Positions 8,902 through 50,137 of a stretch of DNA of 60,655 nucleotides are shown here, one piece after another. The notes under the pieces were generated by a model. That model saw only the letters and a program-made list of their open reading frames with translations. It made no database searches and had not been told where the DNA came from. Made by a program: the position numbers and the translations under genes. Location: NCBI GenBank assembly GCA_008632985.1, contig QPGO01000308.1:1-60655 (forward strand). Reading direction: 5' to 3'. Every line of letters begins with the position of its first letter. Within the stretch, counting starts at the first letter, position 1. This DNA comes from Psammoneis japonica. Taxonomy: Eukaryota.

Positions 8902-9050
8902 CAGAGACCGCGCAAAAATTGTGCAAATGTCGTTTTTGTGCACGATTTGGGTCACGTGCGGCTGGAACACGTCAGTGAGAGACCATGCAAAAATTGCGCA
9001 AATGTCATTTTCGTGCATGATTTGGGTCACGTGCAGCTGGAACACGTCAG
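8901..9050. repeat. 75-bp tandem duplication
   Basis: agagacc..gcaaaaattg.gcaaatgtc.tttt.gtgca.gatttgggtcacgtgc.gctggaacacgtcag twice; internal differences are transitions in YR dinucleotides. Confidence 0.85.
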
Positions 9051-24901: not shown

Positions 24902-25089
24902 GGTTGCTTGTTGTTGCTTGCCTTATTCTTTTTCCCATTTCTCGCGTTGTTACGAGACAAACGGCCGACAGACAGACAAATGCGACGGAAGAGTCGATTT
25001 CACGATTTCCGTCGTCCCCGTGCTTTTTGTGTGGCATTCCATGCTGACAATGGCGTGCCACCGATGACGCCGTTGATTTTAATTTTTAT

Positions 25090-27190
25090 GTGCCAAAATG
25101 CACCAGTTGTGTTGCACGGTGAGTGACAAGCATGGATGTGCACCCACAATGACCCTGGGTGCAGTTCTTTGTGGTTGAATTCAGGGCATCATCAGAGGCC
25201 GAATGCAGCGGCTTGTTCCACTTTCCTTTTTGCAAAATTTTTTAATGTGCATTGTTGAAATTGTCAATGAGCCAAATTTGAAAACTGTCAGCAACAATGC
25301 TCAACAAACTGCAGTTGTTTTGTGCATTTCATCTGAGATGTCTCATCAGCTTTTCTTGCACAAGCTTCAATCAAGTGCAGCCACCAGCCATGCAACAAGA
25401 GTGTCCAATTTAGAGTTGGGGCTGACATCTTTTTCTTGTGATGAATTGTTTGGTTTCCTTTTGATGGTCATCAATTTGAACTTGGTTTCAACTTTGGCCC
25501 TCCCCACTCATGTGCACCATGTGTCTTTGCATGTGTGCAGTCTGTTTCGCGCACAACAAGCCTGTCCCGCCCTCATTTTGAACTCCTCTTCATGCGTGTG
25601 GCTGCTTCCCAGATTTGTGCAGCCCCCAGCAGTTGGTCTGCAGCATTTTCAGCATTTTTTCTGTCCTCAGGCTGTGCTGAAAAAAGAAGGAGGGGAGAAG
25701 TGTGGGAATGCAGAAGCAGACCACATCACACAGGTTCCTGCGCGCAATTCAATGGCCCAGCTCACCTTTGAACAACACAGAGCTGTGGCTTGACAGTGTG
25801 CCAATTGCACACCTTGCGCCCCCACCTTCCTTTTTGTCCTCATCACAGTGCTGATGGGTGAGATTGGCATCAAATCATGTGCCATTGTCACTCTGCACTG
25901 CAAGAAAAATGAAATGGGCCGTGGCAGAGAGTCCAGTCAAATGTTGCTGTGGTGTGGTGTGGCATGTGCTGCTGCCCACACAGTTGATTGACCCACGTTG
26001 TGGGAGGAACAAGTGCACATGATGCTCCCAACTTGAGAGACTCCCTGACAACATCCAGAGGCACCCAACAACATGAGCAACAAGGTGGTTGCCATGAGAA
26101 GAGGAGCACTCACATGAGAGTCAACCAACTGATGACATGCTGCCCCTGGCATTGCTTTTTGTTGCGCAGTGCTTGCACCTCTCAAGTGCTTGCATCATTG
26201 TTGTTGTCTTGCCATGGCATGGTCTCTCACTTTCTCTTTTGCTGTCTTGTCGCCAAGTGCCCTGGGCTGGTTGTTGACTTCTTGGTTCTGGCATGGCAGA
26301 TGACAACAAAAGGTGGCTTCAACAAAGTCAACACTGTGCTTCTGCTGCTGGGGGACTCTCAGAGCATGTGCGAACCCAGTGACCCACTTTGGCTTCTCAG
26401 AGATTTGCCATTGTTGAGCAACCATCTGTTGTTCATTTGAGGACACCAGCTGGAGCAATGTTGGTGGCTGTTGTGAATGTTTTTGTTGCTCAGGAGTGAC
26501 AAGAGAATCTGCTCAAAAGCTGCTCATCATTTTGGAAAGAGCACGCTTGTTGTCAATGCCCCACATTGTCATGATCTTCATGTGTGGCCACACTGTGTGC
26601 ACTGTTCTTCTTGTGGCGCAAACTTTGGAGAGAGGCAAACCACTTTGTGCACTGCAGGGCCTGCAGATGTTGCACTCTGACTCAACCCACAAGTGGGCTG
26701 CAGAGAGTTCATGATGAATTGTCTGGGCCACATCGTGCTCCGACAAGTGTGGTGCGTCCTGTTGTGTTTGCTGGCGCCCGCTCATCCCATCCCGTGTGTG
26801 CCCGTGTTTCTGTCTGCACAGAAACCTGTGAGAGTTTCACGCCTCTGCACAAGAGTCACTGTAGACAACATGTTCTGTTCATTCTTTTGAGCTTGTGAGC
26901 AGCTGGGACATGCACTAAAAGAAGGGACTGCAAGCAGAATGATGCACGCACGCATGCGTGTGCATCGCATGCATGTCAATCAACCTTCTGAGTCACAAAC
27001 GCCTAAACTGCATAACACAGGTTCTCGCTTGCACACTGCAATCACAGAAGAGAACCATGAACCATGATGGCATCTATCAGAGGCTGTCTTTTGTGTCCTC
27101 TCCTCTCGCTGATGCACGTGCAACAACAAGGCGTGACAGGGAAAAAAGTGATCCTTCCCATCATGCCTATTGCCACTTCATTCGAGCATG
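25090..27190. repeat. TpA-depleted tract (unidentified degraded element)
   Basis: TA nearly absent, TG/CA excess, spurious Cys/His-rich ORFs. Confidence 0.7.
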
Positions 27191-28869: not shown

Positions 28870-30490
28870 ACGAAAGCACGTGAGTCCCACAGGCTCAAAA
28901 ACATGCACTCATGATCATCTCACTCGATTGTGACGTGGATTTTGACGCCGTGGTGCAACGGCGCACTTCACGACGACGATGGCAATGATCCCACCATTAT
29001 GACAATTGCCCAAATCCACACTTTCAGACTGGTGCAAGCCACAAACTGACTTTTGTCTGCAGAGGCAGTTGTCAGCCACTCTTGTAATTTTGCAAAGCAG
29101 CGTGCAAAATGTTCCATGTGAACAAAAACAGCATGCTTCCATCAATGCTGCATGCTCAAGAACAGGTCAAATGCTTGTGCTCCAATGCTGTGCACAATCC
29201 ATTGTGGGCTGGATGATGATGTGGTGGTGTGCACGCTTTCTGGCACCAGAGGCACAACAGCAGCAAACATGGTGATGGGGCAACAACAGCAGCTGAAGTT
29301 CCACAGTTGTGTTGTGTGTCTTTTGGCGTCATTTTGTGGTGTGTTGTGAGGGTGCCATGCTGGAATTGTGCACTTTCTCTGTGTGTGCAAAAGGTGCAGA
29401 GGGTTGCTGTGGGGCTTTGGTGCTTGCTGGAAAGAAAACAGCTCTCTGCAAAGGTCAGATTCAAAAGCCTTCTTTTGACAAGAACGTCTCTTGCAACTGT
29501 GATGAATGTTGCTGCAAGAAACCGGGGTGCACACCTGCTCATCATTTTCTGCTGAGCAAGGCTCCACAAGCTCATGGCATAAGATGCTGCCATTTTTCAA
29601 GTGGGCAGAACAATGAATGGTTGCACCACAAATTGGCGCAAAATCAATCTAAAATTGAGCAAAGGCAAACATGAATTTTGCACAGGGACACAAGAAAAAA
29701 ATGTGAGCAAGTGTCACAGCCCTGCCCACGACAGCTCTCATGTGCAGTCATGGGAAAGGTGGCACAGCTGGGCTGCACAGCCAGGTTGCACAGCCAGAAG
29801 AAGGTCACAGCTCTGGTGATTGTGTTCTCTCCATTGCATCCAACATCACTTTGTTCCTGTGCAAGCAAAGCAGTGGCATCTTTTTTCACCCCCACAGGCG
29901 GCACAGTCTGGCGTTTGTCTGACATGACTTGCCCTCTCACACTGCTGCAGCTTGTGGCAATGTGTTCCAGCTCTGAGCGGGACTCTGTTTGACACTGGGC
30001 TCATGCAAAATTCTGCATGTGAGCTCTGCAGCAAAATTGCCAGCTGATTTTCTCACACCACATCAAGAATGATCATGAAAAGGAGAAAAAAGCTGTTTTT
30101 GCAAATCAACAAACTCACTCAGCAGCATCAGCAGGCTTTGAAGGCATCATTTTGCCATGCTGCAATCCAGCCAGCCAGAGCTGGCGAATGTTGGGGAGGT
30201 GCTGGAGGATGACCCTTCAAAAAATGACGGTTTTCTGCCCAAGTTGTTTGCAAAAGCACGATCCAGCAAAGAAAGCTCAGAAGTGTTCCCTTGTCATGGT
30301 TGTCATTCTACAAACAGGCTTTGCATTGATGTGTGCGCCGTCGCCCTCTAGCTGGCAGGTGGCAGCTGGAGCAGTCAGTGCAGAGGTGAAACGGCGTGTG
30401 TCGCACGGCCAACGCGACGGGATGACCATGCCAGAACGCAATTGCGGACAGATGGACGACGAGCATGTCAGGCAGGCATTGCAGGTGGGC
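28870..30490. repeat. TpA-depleted tract upstream of the nested elements
   Basis: TA nearly absent; no credible CDS. Confidence 0.65.
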
Positions 30491-30830
30491 CCCACCCCTG
30501 AGCAAGAGGGTTCTCGTGTCAGTTGCTTCGGGTGTGCAGTGCTTGGTTGATTGCATGAAATGGTTCGAATTGTCTGTGCAGGCCGACACAGCGCTTGCAC
30601 GCTCGCAACACAGACATTGAGAGTTCAAAGTCATGTTTCAGTCTCTTTTCCAGGTTATTTCACATGTCCCTGCTCATTTTTCACGAGCTCTAATTTGCAC
30701 ACGAACCACATGCTGGTTCCTGTGCATTTGCGTGCATTTTGTGCCAGCCGCATCGTAGAGGGGTGTTGTTCGCCGGCCCTGACGAACTCTTTCTCAGACA
30801 CAAAATGCTTTTCACGACGTTCCGGCACAT

Positions 30831-30994
30831 TGCAGCAACTCACCCGCATGCTTCTGACACACAGCATCAATTTTGGATGTTAGATTGACACAGCCGTTTG
30901 AGAGAGGCTCACCAGCGTTCGCTGACACTTAGGCTCCCCTCTCTTTGGTCTACTCACTTCTTTGTTTTGACACCAGTTTCAGCTTGAGCTTGCA
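30831..30994 (+). repeat. 5' LTR
   Basis: Gap-free alignment with 36111-36274; 19 differences, all transitions. Confidence 0.95.
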
Positions 30995-31024
30995 CTGCAA
31001 TTGCAGTCAATTGTAAAGAGTTGA

Positions 31025-31234
31025 ATGAGAAACAACGACACAACTAACAGGCTTGCAAAACAAGAGAAAAGAATGTTGAGAGCGAAGGCAGCGAACTGGG
31101 CTTTGGAACAAAAACGGCAAAAGGAGACACGAAAACAACGAAAACAGGATTTGGCGATTCGGGTTGCACAACTCGAGTCGAAGGTGGAGCACTTGAAGCA
31201 GTTTCTTGGAGGACCAACTTGGCCTGATGAGTGA
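31025..31234 (+). CDS. Short basic/coiled-coil ORF in the Gypsy leader, overlapping the gag start
   Basis: 69 aa; KRQKETRKQRKQDLAIRVAQLESKVEHLKQFL heptad pattern. Confidence 0.4.
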   Translation: MRNNDTTNRLAKQEKRMLRAKAANWALEQKRQKETRKQRKQDLAIRVAQLESKVEHLKQFLGGPTWPDE

Positions 31235-32444
31235 TCGCGAGAGTCTTAAAGAACCGTGCATTTTGCATGCTGTGAAATTTGCTCATTTGGATTTGGAACT
31301 TGCGGGGTTGACTCAGTCGCATGATGATGGCAGCACGCGTGTGAAGAAGTGCCCTTGTTTTGACGGAACTAATGGCATTGAAGCGCTGTTGTTCATGGAA
31401 GATTGTTTTTGTAAACTGGCTGCAAAACTTGAATTCACTGCAGGTGAAGAACCATTTGACAATTTCGAGGAAGTGTTGACAGACACTGCTGAAGACAAAT
31501 GGTCCAATCTCACCGTGGCGATTCCGAATGCGCAAAAGACGGTGGCTCGTTTTGACCAAGAATTGGCTCGTTTTTATTTGTCACATTGTGAAACTGAAGT
31601 GCGTGACACGATGATTGAACACTTGCTCTCCCTCAAAAAACCACATGATGTTGAAGCACAGGCACACGCAGATCGAATGGAGACCTTGGTGCGATGCACA
31701 AACAAGTTGCCGGGAAATGATCCAGTTGTCACTCAGAACCAAAAGAAGAAGATGATCTTCGACAGCTTCCCTTTGTCGTGGCGCAAGATGCACACAAGAG
31801 CAGGACGCATGATTGGAAATGATGCGTCAGTGGAAATTGTGGCGTGTGTGAGCACGGAGAAATCATTTGCAGACAGAAACAAGAAGACTTCGAAGAAGCG
31901 CAAAGATGGACAATCGAAAGGTGGCGGCTCTGCCAAGAAAAAAGGCAATCGCATTGACCAAGAATCTCAATGTCCTTTGCATGCTCACAATCACAAGTGG
32001 AAAGATTGCGTCATGAATCCCGACTCTAACAACTGCTGTCCAAGAACTGATCGCGGAGGTCGCGGACATGGTGGCCGTGGCGGTCGAGGTGGCAGTCGAG
32101 GTGGAGGTCGTGGTTGTGGCGGAGCGCAAGGTCGTGGTTGGCAAGGCCGTTGCTGTCAAGGTCGTGGTGGTGGCCGAGGAAACTACGGTGGTCGCGGAAA
32201 CTGTAACTCTGGCGGCAACAGCGGCGAGCATCATGATGATGGTGGCTCTTGCATGCAATGTCAAAACGACACCCGAACCAATGCAGATGGCGGCGGTTAC
32301 GGCAATCCAGCCAGAACGGCTCCTCCCAATGATTGGTCTGCTGAAAGCCATCATCTTGATTCGACAGGAGGGCCTCGAGAGCATCGAGGTGGAACGGGAA
32401 GTTTTTGACCTGGTGGTCGCTTCTCGGGACGCAGTCGACACTGA
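31227..32444 (+). pseudogene. gag: Gypsy gag
   Basis: CPLHAHNHKWKDC knuckle-like motif and RGG-rich nucleocapsid tail; TGA at 32406 and 32442. Confidence 0.8.
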
Positions 32445-35400
32445 CCCAATGAGCTTGAAGAGCTGTCGTCCGAGTGTGTCACTCCTGATTTTTGTGTGTT
32501 TGATGATTGCACTGATTGCATTGATGATTGTCACACACACGCTGCTGATTTATTTGATGACGACGATTTCGGAAATTACACTGTGAATGACGAAGATGAT
32601 GTGGGAATTGAGTGTGCTGTGCCAACCCCAAAAACAAAACCAACAAAGCCATTGAGTGTGGTCCCTGCAACCTCACTCACGGCGCGATTCATTCAAGACA
32701 AGGAAAGCAAGCGCATGATGTGGGTGTTGCTTGATTCCGGTGGAACCCATTCAATGATTCATGCTTGGGTGTTGCCGGTTGGAGCAGTTCCAGCATTGGA
32801 AGAGACAGGAACGATTCGTGCAAAGTTTGGGACAACAGTGGGAGAACTCGAATCAACTCGTTGTGTTTGACTGCAGGACTTGGTGCTCCCTGAATTCAAC
32901 AAGACCAAACATGTTGACTGCATGCATGCGCATGTGTTTGACTCACCCTGCCAATGTGATGTGATCCTTGGACAGGACTTCTTGGCGAGAGCGGGCATCA
33001 CGTTGGATTTCGAACACGGAATTGTCAAGTGGCTCGGTTCAAGCATTGCAATGAAGCCGAAGAATCAACAGACTGGCATCCAGCAATGGCTCAATGATTT
33101 AACTGATGAGCCAGCCAATGATGATGATGTGTGGGACAGTTGCATCCTCGATGCAAAGTGTGAAGAGACGTCCCCGTCTGAAGCAGCTTCAGCTCAGAAG
33201 CATCTCACTGCCGAACAGCAAGAGAAATTGCATCTCGTGTTGGAGAAACACACTGCTCTTTTTGATGGCACCCTTGGCAAGCACACTGGCGAAAAAGTTC
33301 ACCTTGATGTTGACGCTGACGCCGTTCCGCACCATTCTCGAGCGCACGCAGTGCCGCACAATGATCTCGAGACTTTTGAGCGAGAATTAGATCACTTGGT
33401 GGCTCTTGGCGTTCTTGAAGAAGCCGGAACTTCGGAATGGGCTGCAGGTGCCTTTATTTGACCGAAGAAAGATGGTCGAGTGCGGTGGCTCAGCGACTTT
33501 CGGGAACTCAACAAAGCCCTCAAGCGCAAGGTTTGTCCCTCACCGATCATTCAAGATGTGTTGCAAAAGAGAGCCGGGTGCAAATTTCTTACAAAATTGG
33601 ATCTCTCAATGATGTGCTGTGCATTTGAACTGGACGACGATTCCAAAGATCTGACGACAATCGTGACACCCTTTGGAAAGCATCGATGCTGCCGTCTGGC
33701 AATGGGTTTGAAGCCAGCTCCAGATGTTGCGCAATGCTTGATTGAGAAAACTGTGCTTGACTTGGACGTTGACGCGTGCATTGATGATCTCGCTCAATTT
33801 GATGACAATTTTGACATTCACCTTGCTCGTCTCGACAAACTCCTGCAACGTTTGGAAGAAGCTGGATTTAAAGTGAACCCTTTGAAATGTGAATGGTGTG
33901 TGCAGGAAACGGATTTCCTTGGGCATTGGCCAACTCCGACTGGAATTCGTCCGTGGAAGAAGAAAGTGGAAGCCATTCTGCAAATGCAACCTCCGGAAAA
34001 CATCAAGCAGCTTCGTTCGTTCCTTGGTGCTGTGACATGCTGTCGCAACATGTGGCCTCGGTGTTCTCACTTGTTGAAACCCTTGACAGATCTCACAGGC
34101 AAAGGCTCGTGGACGTGGACAGCAGATTGTCAGGCAGCGTTCGAAGAGATGAAAGCAGCACCAGCGGCCGAGACGTCAATGGTGCACCTGAATCACAACA
34201 AACCCTTCCATGTCTGCACCGATGCCAGTGATTGCCAAATGGGTGCAGTGATTGTACAAGATGGAAAACCCATTGCACATTGGTCTTGAAAGCTGAACGC
34301 GGCGCAACAAAACTGCTCGACGATCGAAAAAGAACTCTTGGCCATTGTCGTGTGCTTCCGCGAATTCTGAACAATGCTCCTTGGCGGTGATTTGCATGTG
34401 TTCACCGACCACAAGAACCTTGCCTTTCGCACCTTGAATTCACAACGTGTGCTCCATTGGCGCCTCTTTCTGGAAGACTTTGCCCCTCAATTCCATTGTG
34501 TCGAAGGCCGCTTGAATGTCTTGGCTGATTGTTTTTCTCGTTTACCTCACATGGATCCTCCCTCTGAAGGGAAGAGTTTGGCTCCGGGCAAAGGAACTGT
34601 TGTTGATTTTGCTCCGCTCGATTCGAAGTTGGTGCCGAGTGAGGAACCATCCGAAGTCGAGGATTTCCGCGATGAGGACTTGGAGCTTGGCGCGTGCCGA
34701 TTCAAGTGTTGTCGCAACATTGAAAATGAAGGCCACTCACACTTCTTCTCTTTCTTTGTTGATGAGCCGGAGCTGTTTGATTCTTTTTTGAATTGCCCTG
34801 CGATGCAGGAGATGCAAAATCCAATGACGTTACAACGGATTCAAGAGTGCCAGTTCGAGGACCAACAATTGAACCAGATGCGCATTGCTCACCCTGATCA
34901 TTTTCTCGTGGAACATGTGAACAATCGACCGCTTGTGTGTTGTCGCACGCGATTGAATGATCCTCCAGGACAGTGGAAAATCTGTTTGCCGACTGCACTT
35001 GTGCCCGACATCTTATGGTGGCATCATCTCGTCCTTGGCCATGCCGGAAGCCAGCGCATGCGTGAAACAATCCAGGCTCATTGTTGTCACCCTGGGTTGC
35101 GTCGCATGTGTGATGAATGTTCTTGCGCTGATTGCCAACATGACAAAACTTTGGGTCCTGGCCATGGAGAGCTGCCCGAACAAGAAGCTCCATTGACTCC
35201 CTGGTCGGAAGTGGCGGTTGACCTCATTGGCCCGTGGAAAATCAAAGTGCCGAATGGAGAGATTGAGTTTCGCGCGTTGACCTGCATTGATCCTGTCTCC
35301 AATCTTGTTGAACTGGTGAGAATTGAGAACAAAACTGCTCGACATGTTGCCAACCAATTCGAAAACTGCTGGCTTGCACGCTGTCCCAGACCGAATCGAT

Positions 35401-35987
35401 GCATCCACGACAACGGCGGCGAGTTCACCGGGTGTGAGTTTCAGATGCCATTGCAACGAGCCGGAATTGATGATGTGCCAACTGCTTCATGCAACCCTCA
35501 AGCCAATGCCATTTGTGGATGAATGCACCAGACTGTCGGCAATGCACTGCGCACGCTCATTGCTTCTGATCCACCTCAAAACCTTCAGGATGCAGCCAGC
35601 CTCGTGGACGATGCTTTGGCAACTGCAGCGCATGCAACCCGCTGTGCTGTTTCCCGTTCCTTGCAGATTTCACCAGGTGCTGTGGTGTTCGGACGTGACA
35701 TGATCTTGGACATCCCAGCACTGGCAGATTTGTTGACAATTCAAGGCCATCGCCAGATGCTGATCAACGACAACTTGCGATGAGCCAATGCCAAGAGAAG
35801 ATCCTGCGATTGTCAAGTGGGTGATCAAGCTCCAGTCAAGCACATTGAGCCATCCAGACTCGAGCCTCGTGCTCATGGTCCTCACCCTGTTGTTCAAGTG
35901 CATGCAAATGGCACACTCTCGGTTCGTCGAGCTCCTCATGTGGTTGAGCGCCTCAACACTCGGCGCCTGATTCCTTTTCGCGGTTGA
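32445..35987 (+). pseudogene. pol: Gypsy pol (protease, RT, RNase H, integrase) in one frame with six internal TGA stops
   Basis: LLDSGG; DFRELNK, LDLSM, ACIDD (for YIDD); TDASD, EKELLAIV, TDHKN; HLVLGH..C..C, VAVDLIGP, DNGGEF, NPQANA; stops at 32868, 33459, 34287, 34368, 35520 and 35781. Confidence 0.95.
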
Positions 35988-36110
35988 TCAGGGGGTTTTC
36001 TTCCCAACACCTGGGTTTCCTCCTGTCATTGTCTTTGCTTTTGGTTTTGGTCCTTGGTTTTTGGCCCTTTGCATGATCCTCTGGTTCTTTCGGATCATAG
36101 AAGGGAAGAG

Positions 36111-36274
36111 TGCAGCAACTCACCCGCACGCTTCTGACGTGCAGTGTCAATTTTGGACATTGGATCAACGCAGCCGTTTGAGAGAGGCTCGCCAGCATTC
36201 GCTGGCGCTTGGGCTCCCCTCTCTTCGGTCTACTCACTTCTTTGTTTTGACATCAGTTTCAGCTTGAGCTTGCA
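36111..36274 (+). repeat. 3' LTR
   Basis: Preceded by the PPT and followed by TSD CACAT. Confidence 0.95.
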
Positions 36275-36387
36275 CACATGACTGCCGGCTCGGTGGACAC
36301 TGTTTCGAGTGCGTTTTCACGTAGAGCCCACTGCAGATGTAGGCATTCAGATTTAATTCGGTACAAATCTACGCAGCATTTTGCGTA

Positions 36388-36424
36388 GGGTGCACACGAA
36401 CCACCAGGTGGTTCGTGTGCACCC
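36388..36424. repeat. Perfect 18-bp-arm palindrome with a 1-nt spacer
   Basis: gggtgcacacgaaccacc-a-ggtggttcgtgtgcaccc, followed by an imperfect second copy at 36430-36459. Confidence 0.9.
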
Positions 36425-36701
36425 AAAAATGCACACGGACCAGCAGGTGGTTCGTGTGCGAAAAATCTATATGTGACGAAGACAACATATTTACCCCTCG
36501 GCGTAATTCACACGGCCAAATGTTTGCGTAGAGGCCCTCGCTCAGGGGTGGGTAGGCCCTACCGTAGCGGCGCAGGCGGGCGCGGCTTCGCTTCGCTGTC
36601 GATTGCGGCTCACCACATTTTTGCGGGAGTTTTCGCTTTTTTTTTTACCGGCATGATAGGCATCAGGGTCACACTCTTTTCTCAGTCTCGACGGATTCAA
36701 G

Positions 36702-39279
36702 ATGAATCTAACAGTTACAGGAAACGAAAGCACTGCTTCTATAAGCCACAATGAAGAAGAAAATCCGATAGCTGAAGACTCGGCAATTCATAGCTATGAA
36801 AGTTACCTGAAACAACAACGCCGGCTGAAAAGTCTGCGGCTGCACAACTCGCAAGCGCACTTGGCAGAAGAAGACATGGAGGAGGATCGATTGCATCAGG
36901 ATGAAATTAATAGATCAACCAGAAAGAGACTCGAAGTCATGAGTATTATCGGGAGACGACAGGCCTTTGTGATTGAGAGCGCCGAGTGGCAATCTGCTTT
37001 GAAGACAACTGCCGGTGACGACGACTTGCATCATGCAACCGATGACCACCCGAGCATTCCGTTTTATGCTCATCCAGTCCAACGCCAACGCTGGGGAGAC
37101 GAACAAGTGTTGCCTCATATTAATTGGGGCGACTTATTCTTTGATTTATTCTACGTGGCGGCTGCTTATAATTTGGGCAGTCTACTGATTTCTGCGCTCG
37201 ATTCCGTTCAGTGGCCGCGGGGTGTCTTGTACTTTGTTGGAATTTTTGGATCTCTTTACAACATGTGGGAAAATGCTGTCAACTATCAAGCACGATATAC
37301 TGTGGTCGATTACGCGCATCGTCTCTTTGAGGTGGTGCGCTTTCTCATTGTTGCGATTGCGGTGTTGCACATCAAGCCGATCGAGTTCCTCTCCAATCCA
37401 GAATCCATCGAGACGTTTTGTTTAGTGCTGTCGCTGTTATTGGAGAGCATTATGCATTTGGGTATTTGTTTAGAGTTGTATTTGCGCGCCGAGGGGGATC
37501 GCATTGCGATTCAAAATCATACGAGACGCAAAATTACCTACGGATCGCTTCCGGCGTCGTTGGTGTATCTGGCGGCTACAATCATTTCAGCCGTGCTTTA
37601 TTGGAATGGCAAGGATGACAGACCAAATCGTTTACTGGCAGACGAATATGGGACAGAGAAAGGTAGCGCTGCTGGGTATGCCGCTGATGATGGTGACATT
37701 AACTGGAACATTGCCGACCTTCCTTTGGCACTTTGCTTTGCTGCTTATGTCTTCAATGCATTTTACACAGGCTTTCGCAAGCTCCGGCTTTCCAATCAGA
37801 ATAACATTGAGGATATGCGTGATCATTTTGTTCCAAGCAACATAGATTATGTGAGTCGTAAAAGTGAAGGAACGAGTCGTTTTCATGATTTTGCTCTTTC
37901 TAACAACTTGTGTGATATATCTCCATTCCTATCCATATCGACAGATGATTCATCGGTAAGTCAGCGGTGCTCCTCTGTACATCTACTCGTCAATGATACA
38001 CTCTCACTAGCTATGCCCTGCCCTGTATGAACCCTAGGTATGGTGAATGGATCATGCTCATGTTTGGAGAGAGTATTCTCTCCCTGCTGATTGTTGAAAC
38101 GACCGAGTCCGCTCAATACTATGTTGCGGCAGGATTTGGTATTCTGACTGTGATTGTCTTGCAAGGTATCAAATTCGAGTCCGAACCGGTCCATGCCGAT
38201 GCACACGCGCTTTGGAGAAATATTCGAGGACAAATGGCCTTTGTCTATACCATTCAACTACTCTCCATGAGCCTAATTGCTTTTGGCGTAAGCTTCAAGG
38301 TTTTTCTAACTATGTTGAAACAAGAAGAAGACAAACCATACGATGACAAGTCCAATCGTCTGTTGGCTCCCACTCCGGCTGTGGAAGAAAATGCAGCAGC
38401 TGCACTTTATTGTGTTTCCTTGAGCGTTGTTCTAGTCGCGTTGGAATTGATGCTCTTGACTCATGGTGGTGCAAAGCACAATTGGAATCTCTTGTTTCGT
38501 TCAAAGGAGAATCGAAGCCTCAACTGGCCACTAGTCATGCTTACGGCTAAAAGTTGGGATTGATTCTGTTTGCCGCAACGCTGAGCCAGTGGCAAACTAA
38601 TCCGACAGCTCTGACTGCCATTGGATTTGTTGAGGTGGCTTCTCTTGCGTGGTCGAGAATACTTGGTTGGGGCTTGGTACACAAGAGAAAGGAAATCAAA
38701 CAAGCTGTCAGGACATCGATTGAAAAGATCAAGAAACCGTCGAGATCATGCGCGACGTCCCAACACAACGACAAGTGCTGTTCCCACCAATTTGGTCAGT
38801 CGCTGCCTTCTAGGAGAAAACGGTCGAAAGCCATGAAATCGTCGGAGTTGGAGGAATGCGCGGAATCGGCTTCTGAAATTGCATCTGAAGCTTCGTATTC
38901 CCAGACTTCGTTTCTAGCGTCCATCCTGGACACGTCCTTTGATGCCATTGTTGTGACGGACGACTACGGACTCATCAAGGAAGCAAACGAGACCGCGGTT
39001 ACCATGTTTGGATATGACAGCGTTTCGGACTTAGTGGGAGAGAGTGTGTCTATTTTAGTGGGAGCGCAGCACGCTAGAGTCCACGACCAGTACATAAAGA
39101 AGTTTCGTGATGAGGGACGCTCGTCGATTATACTTGGAAAACAGCGAGTATCCTTTGCAAGATGCAAGGACGGAAGTGAATTTCCTTGCACCATTGGTAT
39201 CAAGAAGATACCAAACAGTAACTTCATGGTTGCCTACATCAGAGACATGACACCGACGCACAGAAAGAAGGATAGCTAA
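36702..39279 (+). CDS. LtrA-like multi-pass membrane protein with a C-terminal PAS domain; exons 36702-37850, 37945-37955, 38038-39279; apparent frameshift near 38550
   Basis: WGDLFFDLFYVAA; spliced NIDY|MIHR|YGEWIMLMFGESILSL (LtrA-like motifs); PAS region ILDTSFDAIVVTD..N..A..MFGY..LVGESVSIL..HDQYI. Confidence 0.8.
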
Positions 39280-39579: not shown

Positions 39580-42500
39580 CAGTGACATTTCATTTTTGTC
39601 TGATGTGTCTCTTCTCAGTTTTCAAGAGCACCCTCTTTGATGCCAATGTTCGACCCAAGTCCCACATGTCTTTCAAGCATTTTTCCTCTTTGCTGTCTTC
39701 ACAACTTTCCACTTTCAGCCATTATCATGTATGCGAAGGACCATGACATGCTGCGCACCTTCTCCTCCAAAGGATGCTGTTAGTGGCGTAACCCGTTGGG
39801 TCGCTGTGCTGAGTGTGAGGGAGTCCAATGAGCAAGGCCCTGCCATCATGTCCTGCCCACCATCATGAACCGCACCCAAGCCGGCAACAATTTCTTGGAG
39901 GCTTCCATCCTTGACCATGCAGTCCAAATTTGAGCAGGGGCAACCTTTCTCAAAGAGTCAGACAATCATCTGATGGAGCAGGGCCAGCACTGGCAACCAG
40001 CCCACAGAGACATCTGTGACCAGAGTGACTCAGACAGCGGCATCTTGACCCACCTCTGGCTGCACAAATGCAAAGACATCATTGTGACCTTGCAGGGCTG
40101 ATGTGGATGTGGGGCAGCTTCAGCTGTTGGGGGCACAGTCACCTTTGGCACAGCCACAGCACAACCCAAGCAAGCCAGTTGTTGCATGCCGGGGTGGCCA
40201 AGATGGTGGCACCACAAATTGCTCACAGCAAGACATTGTGGGGAGTGCAGGATGGGATCAACTTCATTGTGGAGATTGAACCGGGAGACAATGGAGAGGG
40301 GTCAGTGGCAGCGCAGACAAGAAGTCAACCTGTGTGCTTGCAGATGAGAGGCACACTGGGCTGGAGGCATGGGACAAACTGCAACCCATTTACCCAAACC
40401 ATCAGAAAGGACTGCAGAATGAATTGCACAAAAGATCAATCATTGCCAGCCACCATGATGATGCCATGGCCAAGATCCATGTGGGGAGCTGCGTGTTGTG
40501 CTGGATGCAATGCTCAACAACAAGTGACAGAGGTGGCCAGGAGATGCAAGTGTCTCACCCAGTCTGGGACAACAGAACATTGGGACAGAGCAGGCTTGAT
40601 TGTCCCACATCATGAATGACAGCACACATGCCCACACCATGGGCAGAGAGAGGTTGCTGGCTGGAGGCTGGTGCTGCAGTCATTGGCTGGGGATGGTGGC
40701 AGTTCTTGGTCAGGAGGTGGCAGTGGTCTTAAGATTGCTGATGCTGGTGCACAATGGAAAGTGGGCAGCAGTGATGGCACCATGGTTCAGTGCACGAACC
40801 ACAGCAAGTGCAAGAAGAGGGGGTGTCATTGGCTCTGACACCTCAAGCTGTTCCTGAAAGCAGCTCAGGATCCCCACTGGGTTCTTCTGCAAAGTTTTCC
40901 AAAGCTGTTGCCCATGATTCATTAGATGTGGAGAGCAACTCATCATCCGGGAATGAGTGACATTGGTTGGGTGCCTGGCGCCAGTGTGTGCAAGGCCAAA
41001 CAAGTCTCAATGGTTGTGGGGGTGTTGTGGAACATCTTTCATGCCATCACAATGGGCCCAGCCTGGGTCAAACCCAAGCTGGCTCAGCTTGGTTGCTGCA
41101 AAAATGAGGTCAACCTGGTGTGGTGACCACCATCCATGTCAATTTGCCAGTGGCCTTGCAGTGCAAAAAACCATGCTTGCAGAAGAGCTGCCATGTTTCA
41201 CCATTGGTGGCGCAGGCGTGAATTCCTTCTTGTCAAGTTGTTTGGAGAAGAATGAGTTGCTGGGCATTGAAAGAGACACAGTGTGGGTGGGATGATCTGC
41301 ATCATTGGACCAGAGAAAGAGGCAGTTGGCCAGGATCTGTTTCACATGGGAGAGTGCTGCACTGGAGACTGCTGCAATTGCACATTTGCTTGACATCACA
41401 GGCAGCCCAGAAACAGCTTGAGGAGACCTTGGCATTTGACCTCACTGCCCCTCAGGTTCCTGTCCACAACATCACAAATGCAGCGGCATGTCTCATCAGA
41501 GTGAGTCTGCCACAACAGCAAAATCATCCTCTGACACAGAAAAAGGACTTCCTTGCCACTGACATGGCTGGTGCAGACACATGGTTCATGAGTGGTTGGG
41601 GTGAGGTGGATCTTGCAATGAATGATGCCATTTGCGTGAACACTTCACAGCTGTGGGGACCAGATCTTTGGGAGCACCAGGGAGGCAGAAGACAGCTGCC
41701 ACAACAGAGTCACATCACATGATCACATGTTCACCCAGGGAAGGCCACATGTGGTGGGCTGGGGTGGGGAGGCTTGTGCAAGCAATGGCTTGTCAAGGGC
41801 CAAGGGTGGATGTGAGGCCAGTTGAAGATCTGTGGCAACCATCGGGGGAGGGGCAACCTGCTGAGTTGTTTCAAGTCAAAGAGCAGCTGGGGTTCTGGCA
41901 GCTGGGTGGGTTGTGCAAAATGTGCTTCAACAAACGCTGCACATGTGGCCATCTTCAAGTGACCAGAGGTGGTGTCCACATGTCAAGTGTTGTGATCAGT
42001 TGCAGCAGAGGAGCATCCCACAAAGATGATGCTGAACATGCGGTGCTCCAGTTTGGCAGGGGGCTGCCAGTGTGGTGTGCACAAATGTGTGATCTGAGTG
42101 CACAGCACAGCCAGGTGAGCAAGAATCTCTGGGACCTTGACATTCTGTGAGATTCAAACAGGGTCTTTTTTCTTGTTGAATGCAACAGGTTGTTCTTTAA
42201 ATGGTGTGTGGCATGGAGGACTGCATCAGACCAGAAGGTTCTTGCTGGTGGACCCAATGAGTGGAGCAGTGCATGCACCACAATGCCAAAGGTGTCATGT
42301 GGATTTTGGCATGGCCATTTTGCACCAGATCCAGTCAGCTCAACAGTGCACCCATGTTGGAGACATGTCATGTGCAAAAGTCTCAAGACTTGATGAGTTC
42401 TCCACCTTGACTGGCATGAATGGCAAGATGTGGCCATCTGGGCACACATGGGTTCCAGCGGGGCTTTGTGCCAGGTGCAGGGAACACCCAAGGGCACCAG

Positions 42501-44690
42501 GTGCACACATCCACAACATTGTCCTTGATGCATTGCTTGTTCATCCATGGCTGTTGCATGTTGGGGCCAGAGGAGGAGGCATGCATGAAACCACAAGCAG
42601 TGCTGCCCCCCATTTCCCCCCCCCCCCCCACACACAAATTGCAAAAAGAAGTGGGCCTGCTGCTGCCACCACAGGTGGTTTGTGATCATTGAGTGAGGAA
42701 GTCCTTTGGTCTTTGGTGCATCTGCTGCTGGGAGCAGAGTTTTCCATGCTGCAGGGGTCACAAAAGTGCACTCAAGTTCATTTGAAGTGCACTCATCACA
42801 AGAGGAGGAACAAGAAACAAGATGCCCAGGATCCAAAATGGTGCACCACCACATTTTTCACAGATCACTTGTCTGTCAATTTTTTCAATTGGGGGACATC
42901 TCTCCCTGAACTCTTCTGTGGTGATGTTGTGTGTTGTGAGGTGTGTTGGTGCACATGATGACAGAGAGTGCCATGGACAAGATGGTGAGTGGAAAAACAC
43001 ACCCAGAAAAGTGCAAAAATGCACTTCCCTGCAAAGACTGCACACCGATGTGGCACAATTGTGAGAAAGCAAAGGGCTCCACACTCAAGAGACTTGAAAC
43101 TGATTTGCATGCAATGTCATCTTTCCAGAAAAGAAGATTTTCAGTGAAAGAACAGCACAGATTGAAGCTGCATCCAGGGGTTCCACAGATGCTCAGTTGA
43201 TGGAGGAACCGAGTGTTGGCATGCCAGCAACACAAGAGCCCAAGCATTGAGAGGACTGGAGCTTGCCCCACTGGCTCTTCATGTCAATGTGCTTCCCTGA
43301 TGTGGCTGGATCATGCCAGCTGGAAAAGATCAGAGTGTTGTGTCAAGCCACTGGAGTGCAGGGCATTGAAGGCCAGATTGCAAAGGCAGAGCAGCACCTT
43401 GCTGGCCTCTCACAAAAGAAAGCATCAACAGCCTGCACCAAGCCTGTGAGCCACACATCACATCTTGCAGTGAGCAGTGTTTTGGCATTTGGTGCACCCC
43501 TTCAGAAAACAACTGACGCTGAACTTGAAGACATGATTGACATGGATGAGGCAAAAATTCTTTCCTGAGTTTTCCACTCTTTCTGAGTTTTCCAACCAAT
43601 CACATGCAAAGATGTCGCCAGAGCACCAATGCCGCACAACTGGACTTTGTGGTCATGGAAGAGGAAGAAGAATTTTTGTGAGAGCAACATCTCCATGTGG
43701 TTGTCATTGGCACAAATTTGAGGAACAACCTGGAGCTGATGTGGTGCTTTTCATGAGTCTGCCTGTTGACGAGATTCTTGCAGACATTGGCCTGCAGGCC
43801 ATGGACAGCTTGGTTCAACACCATCCCATCTGGTTGTCTGGTCAATTCTCATGGTGGGTCACCAGGTGGGGTGTTCCTCACCCCCTGCCACCCGGTGGAT
43901 GACCCATCAAACTCATGCTCAACATGTTCAAAGGGGCCCTCAAGGGATGCTCTCACATTGGGAGATCTTCCATGATGCAGATCTTGTGCTGAAGTTGTGC
44001 TCTGTCATTGGAATTCTTGGCCCTCCTCACTGCCCTGGTTTTTGTGAGGTGGGCTTTAGATGAAAAACAACAAAACACAGAGAACAATCTGCGAGTGGCT
44101 GAGCCGCAGCTGCCCACGGAAAATGAAGCTTTCTAAAATCTCAGCACCCCTGGCCTGATTTGTGCACAAAAGCAACCCAGTGCGCGGGTTGGTGGCAGAC
44201 AATGCCCCTCACTTGTTCACTTGTGCACAAATTGCATGTGCATCAGAGCACCTGCTGGACATGCCCGGCACACAAGCCAACTTCAGCAGCTGCCTTGCAG
44301 GGCAAAATGTTGAAGCAACATTTGCTGTGCACAGATCTGCTGAAGTGCCACTGCCACTTGAAAGTCTCGGCACTCTTTTTGTCATTTCTTCAAGAAGCTG
44401 GGCAAGACGTTGATCACTTTGCCCTCTTTCAACCCGAAGCAAGTGCAAAGATGCGCCGCAATTGCTGCTTGATTGTTGATTGTCAAGCGCTGATTTAAGG
44501 AAGCTTTTTTTTCATGACGATGGGGGGGAATCTCCTCCCATCAAGTGCCTTCTCTTGACTTCTTGAGGCTCAGCGTCGCCCAACCCGGTCGATTGTGCCG
44601 GTGTGTTCATCATCGTCATGGCTGTGGTCCGGCAATGGCATCTTTCGCCCATGCATGGCGTGATCTGAAGAATGGAGCGGCAGACACAAC
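39580..44690. repeat. Large tract depleted in both TpA and CpG, containing Copia remnants
   Basis: For example, no TA between 40021 and 40390; CG also rare; boundaries approximate. Confidence 0.8.
41870..42530 (-). mobile_element. Ty1/Copia integrase and downstream region, heavily degraded
   Basis: VVDVCTWCPWVF (~IVD.YTRY.WVF), QGGEL, HGCTVELTG, LLHSLG..FWSDAVLHA..LKN, ATCAAFVEAHF..P.PQLLFDL; a pre-integrase-like LWCHHLGHPG also occurs near 40200. Confidence 0.75.
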
Positions 44691-45062
44691 ATATAAGACG
44701 AAAAAATGTGGCAGACACGATTAAAATATCATATATGCGCATCCAACATCGTATAAAAATGACAAAAAGGGATGCGCTTCTTCAACATCTTATTGATTGA
44801 CATTTATTCAATAGTAAGAGTGTTCATAAATTCTCAACGGACAAATAGAAAAAAGATCCTCATGCTTGAAAAACAAATGTAAGCATGCTACAGTAATCAC
44901 ATTGTGTGATAGGGCCCTCTACGCTCTATCTACGTATGTACATGTCATCTCAAAATGCTCGTCGCGTCGCCCTGATGCTCGTTTTCGCTTCGGAGTTCGT
45001 TCGGATCTCGCATTCTTTTTACACTCTGTAGAGAAAAAAGAAACATACTCTCGACTCCAACC

Positions 45063-46403
45063 ATGGCGTCTCCATGGAGGATTAGCCGCATCATGCATCT
45101 GCCGAAATGGTTGATCGTGTCTATGGCACTGTTGCTGGTCATTATGGATGCAAGATCCGCTTCTATTGCCATGACTTTCCACGTCGCCTCATTGATGAAA
45201 CAGTCACGTACATGGAGAATAGAGTATACATTGATCCTTCCCACGGCGACAAGGCGTGCTCCAACCCAGACGATGACGAAGAAGCTGCAGAAGACATTGA
45301 CTATGGCGTACCACAAAAGGAGCATGACGAGGCGACGCAGAAAGTCATTGCAGAAACTGTCAAGTACATGGAGAATACAGTATATGTTGATGCTGCCTAC
45401 GAATCGGTACGCAGCAGGTGCAAGAATGAACATGTAGACTGTGCTTATTGGGCGAGTGTTGGTGAGTGCGAAAAGAGTTCACAGTATATGAATCAGCATT
45501 GTACTGCTGCCTGTCAAACGTGTGATATGCTCCACGTTGCCAAGAGGTGTAAATGGGATCCTACCAAACCTCAAGCATGGAAACACGGCGATTTGAATCG
45601 CATGTTTGAACGCATCACGGCCGACCCTGATTTAATCGAAAAGTACAGTCCAACCATTTTGTCACGGCCGTCTGAAAACAAGGATGAGGACGGACCTTGG
45701 ATCATTACTCTTGATAATTTCATTTCGGAAACAGAGTGCGACTATCTTATTCAAGCTGGTAAGGATGTTGGATACGAACGATCCACGGGTGGATCCGACA
45801 AGAAGGGTGAAAACGGAGAATACCTGAGTACCGTGTCCGAGTACCGCACGTCGTACCAGACATGGTGCATGGGCGAGTGCTATGAGAGTGAAGCGGCCCG
45901 AAATGTTTCGGCTCGCATTGAACACGTGACGGGGATTGCCGAAGTACATTCCGAGTTCTTCGAATTGCTTCGATACCAGCCTGGTCAGTATTACAAAGTT
46001 CACGGCGATTTTATCGATGTTCAGTTGGAGCGGCCCATGGGACCGAGGCTCTTGACTGTTTTCCTCTACTTGAACGAACCAGAAGAGGGAGGAGGGACGA
46101 GCTTTCCTAAGCTAGGTCCGTTAACGGTGCAACCAAAACGTGGTCGCGCCCTGATTTGGCCATCGGTGTTGAATGAAGATTTTTCTACACCTGATACACG
46201 AACGGACCACGAGGTATGTTTTATGTATGTAGGGCGTTTGTCCTTGATTCACAGAAATGCGTGCTCACAACACCTTGTTCTTCTGGTGAAACAAAAAAAT
46301 TCAGGCCTTGCCCGTTGTTGCTGGTGAGAAATATAGTGTCAATGCGTGGTTACACCTGGGAGACTTCAAGGATGCCTATGCACGAAGCTGCAGCTTCAAT
46401 TAG
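45063..46403 (+). CDS. P4H: Prolyl 4-hydroxylase with ShK domain; intron 46214-46304; apparent frameshift near 45175 after the signal peptide
   Basis: CKNEHVDCAYWASVGEC..YMNQHC..ACQTC (ShK); RTS..WC, LLRY..GQYY..HGD, RLLTVFLYLN..EGGGT.FP, HE|ALPV..GEKY..NAWLH. Confidence 0.9.
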
Positions 46404-48540: not shown

Positions 48541-48880
48541 TCTACTCTCTCTACTAGAGAGAGTAGAGCTAGAGTACAGTAGAGGTAGCTACCTACTCTC
48601 TCTCTAGCTAGAGCTAGTAGAGAGAGCACCGTAGCTACTAGAGTAGAGCTAGTAGTAGAGGTAGCTACCTGCCGGTGGCCACCGGCAGCCAGAGCCAGCC
48701 AGCTGCTCTCTGCTCTAGCTTTTTGCTGGAGTTGCGGGGTGGAAGCATGGCAGCACTTTAAACAGTGGAGAGCCAGCAGCCAGAGAGCAGAGCTGCCGCC
48801 ATGTGATGCTGCCGCACCGCAGAGAGAGCTGCCATGACTGCGACTCTCTCTCTAGCCAGCTGGCTGCTCTGGCTGGCAGG
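48541..48880. repeat. TAG/CTA/GA low-complexity satellite: intact to ~48668, TpA-converted beyond
   Basis: agagtagagctagtagtagaggtagctacc changes to ctgccggtggccaccggcagccagagccagccagctgctctc. Confidence 0.8.
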
Positions 48881-49770: not shown

Positions 49771-49775
49771 CACTA

Positions 49776-50137
49776 TGGGGACATCCCGAATAAATTTAGC
49801 CAGTGGCTAAAAACCTCCTGTAGAATTCTACGGATTTCTCCTGGTATGCGATATATTTAATGATAACGCCTTTTAACGCCACCCCATTGTTTTCTTTTAT
49901 ATACATATTATTATTTGTAGTTTTTTGTTTTTGTATTCATTTTGAAACGCTTAAAAGCTAAATGTTTTATATGAACGAACGTTATAGTTAGCACCAAACC
50001 GTTACAGATATGACATTTATAGGTTCAGTACAATGGATAGTAAATACTTTTTGTGTAGAAAATATACCAGCGTACAAACCTGGTATGTGTCTACACAAAA
50101 TTTTAGCCACTGGCTAAAATCATTCGGTATGTCCCCA
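49776..50137. mobile_element. AT-rich MITE, ~360 bp, with ~37-bp TIRs, flanked by TA (Tc1/mariner-type target)
   Basis: ta|tggggacatcccgaataaatttagccagtggctaaaa ... ttttagccactggctaaaatcattcggtatgtcccca|ta. Confidence 0.85.

Follow-up and report, generated by a model that had tools for sequence, protein, structure and literature searches.

A complete Ty3/Gypsy element

The window, a 60,655-nt stretch of Psammoneis japonica contig QPGO01000308.1, carries a complete Ty3/Gypsy LTR retrotransposon at 30831–36274. These coordinates are exact, and the element has the LTRs, the target-site duplication and the domain order (reverse transcriptase, RNase H, integrase) of that class. It is composed of the following features:

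30826–30830, no strand: 5′ target-site duplication CACAT, with the identical 5 bases at 36275–36279
30831–30994, plus strand: 5′ LTR, 164 bp, TG..CA; 3 TA and 4 CG left
31197–32405, plus strand: gag-like open segment, 403 aa with 3 Tyr; no Pfam match
32445–35984, plus strand: pol, sharing the frame of gag; 6 internal TGA stops
33462–33926, plus strand: reverse transcriptase domain RVT_1, Pfam E 1.2e-12
34116–34286, plus strand: RNase H-like domain RT_RNaseH_2 (Pfam), ended by a TGA at a conserved Arg
34989–35150, plus strand: integrase zinc-binding domain Integrase_H2C2, E 2.8e-5, just under Pfam's cut-off
35238–35498, plus strand: integrase core rve, E 8.8e-6, under Pfam's cut-off
36111–36274, plus strand: 3′ LTR, 164 bp; 1 TA and 9 CG left
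36275–36279, no strand: 3′ target-site duplication CACAT, the copy of the 5′ duplication

With full-length homologs as queries, tblastn gives a match that covers 32574–35981. The empty site is also present, as one contig of public run X1 joins 30825 directly to 36275. A single frame spans 31197–35984 with no frameshift, interrupted by 8 internal stops and closed by a ninth at 35985; all nine are TGA. Within the aligned part of pol, four of six stops fall on conserved Arg (CGA>TGA), which indicates that CpG decay is present in the element. An earlier, sequence-only reading of this DNA had described identical target-site duplications, LTRs of equal length and gag-pol in one frame with no indel, all of which we find here.

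Depletion of TA and loss of tyrosine

The element contains only 26 TA dinucleotides, an observed/expected ratio (O/E) of 0.08 against 0.47 in the remainder of the window. Taking the island-free background (O/E 0.57) as reference, around 196 would be expected (Poisson P = 7e-53), and approximately 87% of the expected sites are missing. The ratios for TG, CA and CG are 1.60, 1.37 and 0.81, respectively. The local counts that first drew attention to the deficit, 3 TA in 33481–34260 and 12 in 45181–45420, were both reproduced. At the right end of the element the depleted state stops sharply, with TA reappearing at 36322, 48 bp beyond the end of the LTR, and at normal density from there.

Stop-to-stop segments of 196, 275, 383, 86 and 67 aa in pol contain no Tyr, in line with the Tyr-free segments reported previously, and in an alignment with 30 homologous pol proteins none of 24 conserved Tyr columns is kept: 16 read Cys (TGY) and 6 His (CAY), the two outcomes that the sequence-only reading had named, with one Phe and one Arg (CGT). 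The catalytic motif of the reverse transcriptase, Y-I-D-D in homologs, is CIDD. The same comparison shows Cys retained at 15/15, Trp at 15/15 and Gly at 38/39 conserved positions, and non-Tyr conserved residues are kept at 75–100%; conserved Arg has become stop, Cys, His or Gln in 9 of 38 cases. Mutation at TpA, by which the sequence-only reading had the element inactivated, would account for the lost Tyr codons; most of the stop codons come from CpG>TpG/CpA decay.

Ancestral states in this analysis were read from proteins 55–68% identical and from 40 of 319 variant places listed. Polarisation at the codon level gives 29 TA>TG, 12 TA>CA, 7 CG>TG, 7 CG>CA and 13 other transitions. Single-step changes of TA to TG or CA (41) outnumber the 13 transitions outside TA and CG. 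Both products occur throughout the element, with an excess of 134 for TG and 57 for CA, and with 16 Cys to 6 His at the Tyr columns (binomial P = 0.052).

Comparison of the two LTRs over their 164 sites yields 19 differences. Every one is a transition, and 17 fall within YR dinucleotides. Two sites are TA in the 5′ LTR and TG in the 3′ LTR; at four, one LTR has CA where its partner has TG, for which CG is a possible origin instead of TA; and seven have CG opposite TG or CA. LTR differences can in principle arise in reverse transcription. The element had been described as young, which is true only at non-YR sites.

Other copies and relatives

The family is multi-copy, with 2049 contigs of run X1 matching the window and differing from it at 285 transition and 34 transversion places. 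Among 40 of these 319 variant places that were listed, other copies have TA at 9 and CG at 15 where the window has TG or CA. Two of these places, 30734 and 36329, fall in the flanks of the element and are TA in paralogs and TG or CA in the window. One contig with a depth of 392 matches 33781–33920 with 2 differences; part of the mutated state may therefore be common to several copies, that is, inherited and not acquired in place.

Related metagenome loci have ordinary TA content in 17 of 17 cases (O/E 0.45–1.01), which speaks against a family natively without TA, a possibility that the sequence-only reading had named as a refutation of its claim. Of 303 public relatives, 11 retain Tyr at under half of the 21 columns with a Tyr consensus (sources jgi, ena and lgn), and the Tyr-to-Cys/His pattern among public relatives differs from copy to copy. 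In a family of nine sibling relatives, Cys, His and Tyr alternate at the same columns, and two siblings retain Tyr.

TA-poor islands and flanking context

Counting the element, the window holds seven TA-poor islands beside host genes with a TA O/E of about 0.57. The other six, recognized by dinucleotide O/E, are as follows:

7501–8100, no strand: short TA/CG-poor island
14301–16000, no strand: older TA/CG-poor island
25001–27000, no strand: older TA/CG-poor island
28901–30800, no strand: older island adjoining the element, which lies at its right edge; TA O/E 0.08, CG 0.43
39801–44700, minus strand: older island; TA O/E 0.03, CG 0.16, TG and CA 1.8–1.9
48701–49800, no strand: weaker TA-poor island; TA O/E 0.12, CG 0.65

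Retroelement identity is established for two of the seven, the element and 39801–44700, whose minus strand carries, at roughly 42153–42353, what is left of the tail of a Copia-type integrase. In all seven the deficit of TA plus CG approximates the excess of TG plus CA (226 versus 191 in the element, 421 versus 406 in 39801–44700), and in the six older islands TG and CA are in excess to much the same degree. The CG O/E is 0.16–0.43 in five of these six and 0.65 in 48701–49800. Judged from such composition, CpG methylation decay would be a second, separate process here.

The TA sites that survive are a biased set. Among 64 survivors, 29 are YTAR, 20 YTAY, 13 RTAR and 2 RTAY, compared with 266, 471, 475 and 509, respectively, among 1721 background sites (YTAR versus RTAY, Fisher odds ratio 27.7, P = 1.8e-11). 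At the conserved Tyr columns, RTAY codons became 7 Cys and 5 His and YTAY codons 9 Cys and 1 His (Fisher P = 0.16). Flanking context may account for part of the excess of TG over CA in the element.

Explanations for the signature

The homologs' Tyr, the LTR-specific outcomes, the TA in other copies, the sharp edge and the six islands together support a both-strand, TpA-specific change in mobile DNA, and with it the central claim of the sequence-only reading: conversion of A:T to G:C at TpA that affects either strand, takes place in DNA and is limited to mobile sequence. The explanation we favour, and regard as probable, is that silenced mobile DNA undergoes TpA-directed A:T>G:C hypermutation at the DNA level, besides ordinary CpG decay. 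A Ty3/Gypsy element would have inserted into a repeat of the host genome, probably that of a diatom, and after integration a host process would have turned A:T to G:C at TpA on either strand, giving TG or CA. Decay of methylated CpG to TG or CA, a slower process in the same DNA, would be the source of most in-frame TGA stops. Both processes would in time give silenced mobile DNA the composition of the six older islands, with TA and CG gone and TG and CA abundant. The change at TpA has a flank preference under which nearly all RTAY is erased and YTAR lives longest. The process would act after integration and not at the cDNA stage; the LTR-specific outcomes and the TA in other copies and in flank paralogs agree with this, although they are compatible with cDNA-stage events too. 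It would presumably be targeted through the silenced or foreign state of the integrated DNA. Defence may be its function, and repeats as such may be the trigger.

The chemistry is the more tentative part. Deamination of adenine to hypoxanthine, by an enzyme of the TadA/ADAT2 type or another of the deaminase fold that prefers 5′-TAY, is the likeliest single possibility, and one we hold with considerable reserve. In YTAY Tyr codons the outcome is TG in 9 of 10, which if read as adenine damage amounts to a 5′-TAY preference and is a weak pointer away from other chemistries; the natural tRNA target context of TadA, U-A-C, resembles it. The same DNA-level process at TpA might instead proceed by modification of thymine, such as its oxidation to 5-hydroxymethyl- or 5-formyluracil by an enzyme of the TET/JBP type, with subsequent mispairing with G, by deamination of a methylated adenine or by an error-prone polymerase. 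These data do not distinguish A>G on one strand from T>C on its complement, 5-formyluracil forms mutagenic pairs with G, and hydroxylation of thymine at TpA is a feature of other protists. No observation here counts directly against these routes; even so, we consider them rather unlikely.

Editing before integration, in which a single-strand-specific deaminase acts on cDNA or RNA over at least one round of retrotransposition in the manner of APOBEC3, would have delivered a copy that arrived mutated. It would fit the TA-poor state ending exactly at the element's right end, the predominance of TG over CA on the coding strand and the mutated state that the high-depth contig has in common over 140 bp. 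We nevertheless judge it unlikely: TG and CA outcomes are both found throughout, the LTRs differ in outcome at TA sites, the flank sites 30734 and 36329 lie outside the element, and islands without a recognizable retroelement have the same loss with TG equal to CA. In Bigelowiella natans, moreover, integrated DNA viruses acquire the signature while the cells grow vegetatively (bioRxiv 10.64898/2026.01.13.699255). A sequencing or base-calling artefact, with true TA carrying a modified base miscalled as TG or CA, was raised by the sequence-only reading and is very improbable. Run X1, possibly from the same sample as the assembly, contains 35% of sampled 31-letter words of the window exactly, and 374 of its 2049 contigs are at least 99% alike to the window. 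Strand-specific miscalls would leave many TA and CG at Tyr codons, where we see 16 TG, 6 CA, 1 CG and 0 TA; the same Tyr-to-Cys/His pattern is found in proteins from three other sources; and for B. natans the calls were made on Illumina data. Finally, a family that natively avoids TA, for example through selection against UpA in RNA, with the element functional as it is, would explain the low TA count and nothing more. It is scarcely credible, being already contradicted by CIDD in place of Y-x-D-D, the loss of 24/24 conserved Tyr, the 8 internal stops, relatives with ordinary TA content and the TA carried by other copies.

Implications

A single preprint, on one chlorarachniophyte, had previously reported TpA-directed hypermutation. 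The same signature, here at saturation in LTR retrotransposons of another, probably diatom, genome and in public sequences from three other sources, suggests a widespread eukaryotic genome defence. Possibly, though we put it forward only tentatively, diatoms and chlorarachniophytes share a dedicated DNA-editing defence that may extend to much of the SAR supergroup, in which an enzyme of the deaminase fold would turn adenine into hypoxanthine at 5′-TAY in silenced mobile or viral DNA. If so, Tyr codons and TA-containing signals would be erased within a short evolutionary time, invaders would end, with CpG methylation decay, as TA- and CG-free fossils, and eukaryotes would possess a natural sequence-context-specific DNA adenine editor; such an editor with a defined context would be of interest to base-editing work. 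Comparison offers a handle on the enzyme, through deaminase or TET/JBP genes shared by genomes with the signature and missing elsewhere, and the flank rule (RTAY erased, YTAR spared) is a constraint that any candidate must reproduce. There are practical consequences as well. TA-free DNA lacks TAA and TAG stops and therefore has long spurious open reading frames in all frames, and where YR sites mutate this fast, insertion ages taken from LTR divergence, an approach used for diatoms, would be badly off.

Comparison with known systems

Like fungal RIP, the process makes dense, transition-only changes in mobile or repeated DNA, creates stops, leaves structure intact and spills somewhat into the flanks. 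RIP, however, acts through C>T, chiefly at CpA, and thereby generates TpA, whereas here TpA is destroyed and CpA and TpG are made; the ratios in the element (TA 0.08, TG 1.60, CA 1.37) are the opposite of those of RIP, which we reject. RIP also depends on repeats, a premeiotic stage and RID, and diatom DNMT4 is related to RID (PMC9998398). The decay of methylated CpG in silenced transposons is likewise seen in the element as CG>TG/CA, and is near complete in the older islands, but cannot remove TA, and the element's CG O/E of 0.81 compares with 0.08 for TA.

As with APOBEC3, a context-specific deamination inflicted by the host would kill a retroelement whose structure is unbroken. APOBEC3, in contrast, converts C to U on minus-strand cDNA and leaves G>A on one strand; here A:T pairs are changed in both orientations and the LTRs differ, and editing of cDNA of the APOBEC type is rejected. 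ADAR and TadA/ADAT2 share the A>G outcome and the preference for a 5′ U or T, yet are RNA enzymes by default, and ADAR edits many contexts on one strand. ADAR is not known outside animals. Amphioxus ADAT2 is reported to deaminate DNA (PMC10354150).

The closest parallel is B. natans, although the sequence-only reading knew of no description of such a system. The 2026 preprint (bioRxiv 10.64898/2026.01.13.699255), in the portion available, documents the emergence of TpA>TpG/CpA hypermutation in real time: in mutation-accumulation lines, 230 of 231 events were A>G/T>C, all at TpA and in integrated viral DNA; the long-term trace is TpA-poor, CpA- and TpG-rich clusters enriched in reverse transcriptase and DDE domains; and an ADAT2-like candidate is proposed. 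In that same portion the words diatom, trinucleotide, flanking and CpG are all absent. The two cases differ in several respects, as far as that text goes. Host background TpA is 4.0% of dinucleotides here and stated as 6.0% there, and the host ORFs here are long and intron-free, with Gypsy relatives from diatoms. The target here is a multi-copy LTR retrotransposon rather than single-copy integrated viral DNA, and the loss is near saturation (O/E 0.08, compared with a rho of 0.45 for the B. natans viral region), accompanied by CpG decay and by the flank bias that erases RTAY and spares YTAR. Real-time occurrence is demonstrated there, while here the signature is read from sequence alone. What the two have in common is A>G/T>C at TpA giving TpG and CpA, confined to foreign or mobile DNA that lies next to host sequence evolving at its normal pace. 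The element shows A:T>G:C change at TpA (22 of 24 Tyr to TGY or CAY), both products, and a mobile target.

Loss of TpA from a Gypsy element

The Gypsy element is complete, with LTRs of equal length and the same five bases, CACAT, duplicated on either side, as the sequence-only reading had described.

30831–36274, complete Ty3/Gypsy LTR retrotransposon
30831–30994, 5′ LTR, 164 bp, beginning TG and ending CA
36111–36274, 3′ LTR, 164 bp, beginning TG and ending CA

Its gag–pol runs in one frame (31197–35984) without a frameshift, agreeing with the earlier description of a frame free of indels, and full-length homologous pol proteins searched against the window with tblastn align in that single-frame manner over 32574–35981. 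The Pfam domains of pol follow the order RVT_1 (E = 1.2e-12), RT_RNaseH_2 (1e-11), Integrase_H2C2 and rve. Eight internal stops and the frame-ending stop at 35985 are TGA in 9/9 cases. A contig from X1, a public sequencing run, links 30825 straight to 36275; this empty site confirms the limits of the insertion. A 30-nt near-palindromic repeat flanks the element (30696–30725, 36391–36420 and 36430–36459), and X1 contigs of high depth span both flanks, so the element was inserted into a multi-copy repeat. The window holds no second copy of the family elsewhere. Protein searches with its pol returned no relative closer than 70%, and the named relatives are diatoms (Cylindrotheca closterium, Nitzschia inconspicua, Cyclotella atomus and Ditylum brightwellii), in keeping with a host that is probably a diatom.

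With 26 TA dinucleotides, the element has an observed/expected ratio (O/E) of 0.08, compared with 0.47 in the rest of the window and 0.57 when all TA-poor islands are removed; at this background O/E of 0.57, 196 would be expected (Poisson P = 7e-53). The local counts given in the sequence-only reading, 3 TA in 33481–34260 and 12 in 45181–45420, are exact. Because CG O/E (0.81) is equal inside and outside the element, TA loss is its distinguishing feature.

To read the direction of change, we placed the pol translation (stops entered as X) in an alignment with 30 homologous proteins of at least 1,000 aa (55–68% identical; the first 30 by id among those fetched) and took columns with at least 70% agreement as conserved. 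Tyr is the conserved residue in 24 of 550 such columns, and the element has kept none: 16 read Cys (TGY), 6 His (CAY), 1 Phe and 1 Arg (CGT), which bears out the replacement of Tyr by Cys and His noted from the sequence alone. Tyr is likewise missing from stop-to-stop pol segments of 196, 275, 383, 86 and 67 aa, as had been claimed for four such segments. Other conserved residues were retained (Cys 15/15, Trp 15/15, Gly 38/39, Ala 23/24); conserved Arg was altered at 9/38 columns (4 to stop, 2 to Gln, 2 to His and 1 to Cys), all explicable by CpG transitions. Polarizing each changed column against whichever consensus-residue codon lies nearest gave TA>TG 29, TA>CA 12, CG>TG 7, CG>CA 7, other transitions 13 and transversions 40, counts that are approximate because the nearest-codon choice, faced with alternatives, tends to pick a codon that contains TA. 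All the transversions, and several of the other transitions, fall in multi-change codons and come from ordinary divergence, the homologs being distant. The changes at TA yield both TG and CA. Elements of this kind do not natively lack TA, a possibility raised at the outset for the family: 17/17 related metagenome Gypsy loci have a TA O/E of 0.45–1.01.

Divergence of the LTRs and of other copies

The two LTRs of one element are normally identical at integration. Here they differ at 19/164 sites, all 19 by transitions and 17 within YR dinucleotides (Y, pyrimidine; R, purine). At seven sites CG in one LTR faces TG or CA in the other; at two, both of them TTAG, the 5′ LTR has TA and the 3′ LTR has TG; at four (eight mismatches) CA faces TG; and the remaining two differences lie at other positions. 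Outside YR sites the divergence is about 1%. The insertion is therefore young by its ordinary sites, as the sequence-only reading held, but its YR sites are heavily changed and do not share that youth. The 5′ LTR retains 3 TA and 4 CG and the 3′ LTR 1 TA and 9 CG, an unequal decay across the two site classes.

Run X1, which contains 35% of sampled words of the stretch exactly and is possibly the assembly's own sample, provided other copies; two further public runs, X2 and X3, covered almost none of the stretch. Of 2,049 aligned X1 contigs, 374 are at least 99% alike and the remainder more distant, which indicates many copies of the family. Variant places comprise 285 transitions and 34 transversions, and the comparison of states covers 40 of these 319 places. 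Among the 40, TG or CA in the window corresponds to TA in other copies at 9 and to CG at 15, one of the latter turning the stop at 34287 back into CGA; the opposite direction accounts for 2 and other kinds for 14. Two of the nine TA places, 30734 and 36329, lie in the flanks and hint at a slight spill beyond the element, although the flanks are themselves repeated DNA. Normal TA density returns from 36322, 48 bp past the 3′ LTR; the right flank is not TA-poor, whereas the left is, the element adjoining an older TA-poor island on that side.

Older islands in the window

Six further TA-poor islands were found.

7501–8100, TA-poor island
14301–16000, TA-poor island
25001–27000, TA-poor island
28901–30800, TA-poor island
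39801–44700, TA-poor island, the largest
48701–49800, TA-poor island, CG O/E 0.65

Their TA O/E is 0.03–0.12 and their TG and CA O/E 1.5–1.9; unlike the Gypsy element they are also CG-poor, with CG O/E of 0.16–0.43 in the five other than 48701–49800. Together with the element they make up about 29% of the window. In each of the seven, the deficit of TA plus CG relative to background matches the excess of TG plus CA (226/191, 130/140, 148/169, 124/146, 421/406, 52/47 and 41/33), as conversion predicts and compositional selection does not. TG and CA gains are about equal in the older islands; in the Gypsy element they are +134 and +57.

By similarity, the islands resemble neither the Gypsy element nor, beyond short patches, one another, and no LTR-like repeats were found in them. 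The scanned island stretches contain 99 stop-free segments of at least 70 aa; Pfam searches of 11 and then all 99 gave no credible match. One open frame could be placed.

41958–42857, minus strand, open frame of 300 aa with a weak Copia-type integrase tail (best match about 42153–42353)

It matches three proteins in a library of 1.8 billion (E about 3e-4 library-wide), all with the retroviral SH3-like domain found after Copia-type integrase cores, at 47% identity over 72 aa and with His where the matches have Tyr; this identifies island 39801–44700 as an old, degraded retroelement. Since TA-free DNA has neither TAA nor TAG, long frames stay open in all six frames, as in 39801–44700, and gene prediction there would yield spurious genes.

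Between the islands, host genes show ordinary TA, CG O/E near 1 and uninterrupted ORFs of 400–758 aa; none of 10 host ORFs had an exact match in the protein collection. Their products include a beta-helix protein, a HAD hydrolase, a nucleotide-transporter-like protein, a Kelch protein, an LtrA-like protein, a PAS protein, a 2OG-Fe(II) oxygenase with a ShK domain, CrcB and NUP50/RanBP1; for one, the nearest Atlas cluster is most frequent in Bacillariophyta. Abutting plus-strand frames at 36702–38027, 38027–38560 and 38554–39276, in different frames, encode first an LtrA-like domain in two halves, next a PAS domain, and may be a single gene with short introns or frameshifts. A GC-rich (59%) plus-strand open frame at 19643–21046, low in TA, normal in CG and without a Pfam match, does not belong with the hypermutated islands. 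A tandem repeat at 8895–9050 (75-bp unit, 2.1 copies, 88% matches) adjoins the first TA-poor island.

Preference for flanking bases

The 64 TA dinucleotides surviving in the seven islands fall in YTAR (29), YTAY (20), RTAR (13) and RTAY (2), compared with 266, 471, 475 and 509 among 1,721 background TA (YTAR against RTAY, Fisher odds ratio 27.7, P = 1.8e-11). Tyr codons preceded by a purine (RTAY, strand-symmetric) became Cys in 7 cases and His in 5, and those preceded by a pyrimidine (YTAY) in 9 and 1, a difference resting on few sites (Fisher P = 0.16). Much of the coding-strand TG excess may stem from this context effect, but on such small numbers a true strand bias may also contribute.

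The same pattern in public proteins

Among 303 related Gypsy proteins, the median one keeping Tyr at 91% of 21 Tyr-consensus columns, 11 keep it at less than half of these columns, with Cys or His in its place (P0128, P0234, P0259, P0262, P0176, P0144, P0242, P0039, P0246, P0137 and P0215; sources jgi, ena and lgn). Nine fetched proteins form one family, with mutual identity of 81–89% where measured, and have Y, C or H at the same columns in differing combinations: Tyr is retained throughout in P0244, which has 18, and in P0291, which has 8, P0128 and P0259 have none, and across these siblings the columns hold 34 C and 14 H. Intact and mutated copies of one family therefore exist side by side, with outcomes independent in each copy. 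A metagenome scan with the Tyr-poor family yielded 17 loci, all outside that family (65% at best), and a scan of viral contigs found none.

A proposed host process acting on mobile DNA

What is observed is the signature, together with its direction, confinement and recurrence, and these support in substance the initial interpretation, TpA→TpG/CpA hypermutation of mobile DNA. The best-supported reading is that a host process acts on integrated, silenced mobile DNA: it would convert A:T into G:C at TpA steps of both strands, most rapidly at RTAY, while methylated CpG on the same DNA would decay more slowly. That the change takes place at the DNA level is supported, although not proven, partly by an experiment in Bigelowiella natans; silent chromatin, small RNA or repetition could be its trigger, and a role in defence is plausible.

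As to chemistry, the survival bias and the Tyr-codon outcomes fit a 5′-TAY preference if adenine is damaged and a 5′-RTA preference if thymine is. We tentatively favour adenine deamination by a deaminase-fold enzyme, with thymine oxidation by a TET/JBP-type enzyme as the leading alternative. Biased gene conversion was dropped, as it is not TpA-specific and is unable to remove CG, as were UV photoproducts at TpA, which offer no reason for limitation to mobile DNA.

Comparison with known systems

The sequence-only reading knew of no earlier description; TpA-directed hypermutation is, however, of a kind described once before, in 2026. Our full-text literature search found the signature in one preprint for any organism and in no report on diatoms; in a 2025 diatom transposon preprint the stems hypermut, dinucleotide and deamin are absent. 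According to Hoguin et al. 2023 (PMC9998398), diatom DNMT4, a relative of RID, the enzyme of fungal RIP, has no known function.

According to the accessible part of the one preprint (bioRxiv 10.64898/2026.01.13.699255), two integrated viral regions took 231/302 nuclear point mutations in B. natans mutation-accumulation lines, of which 230/231 were A>G or T>C, all at TpA, at a rate roughly 1000x background and in a subset of the lines only. TpA-poor coding sequences of that genome are enriched for reverse transcriptase and DDE domains, and the authors propose DNA adenine deamination with an ADAT2-like candidate. The words diatom, trinucleotide, flanking and CpG do not occur in that part of the text. 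The background TpA stated there for B. natans is 6.0%, compared with 4.0% of dinucleotides here, which makes B. natans an unlikely source of this window. Our case differs in lineage and in target class, an LTR retrotransposon rather than integrated viral DNA; the signature here is at saturation, and a flank preference and a coupling with CpG decay are added.
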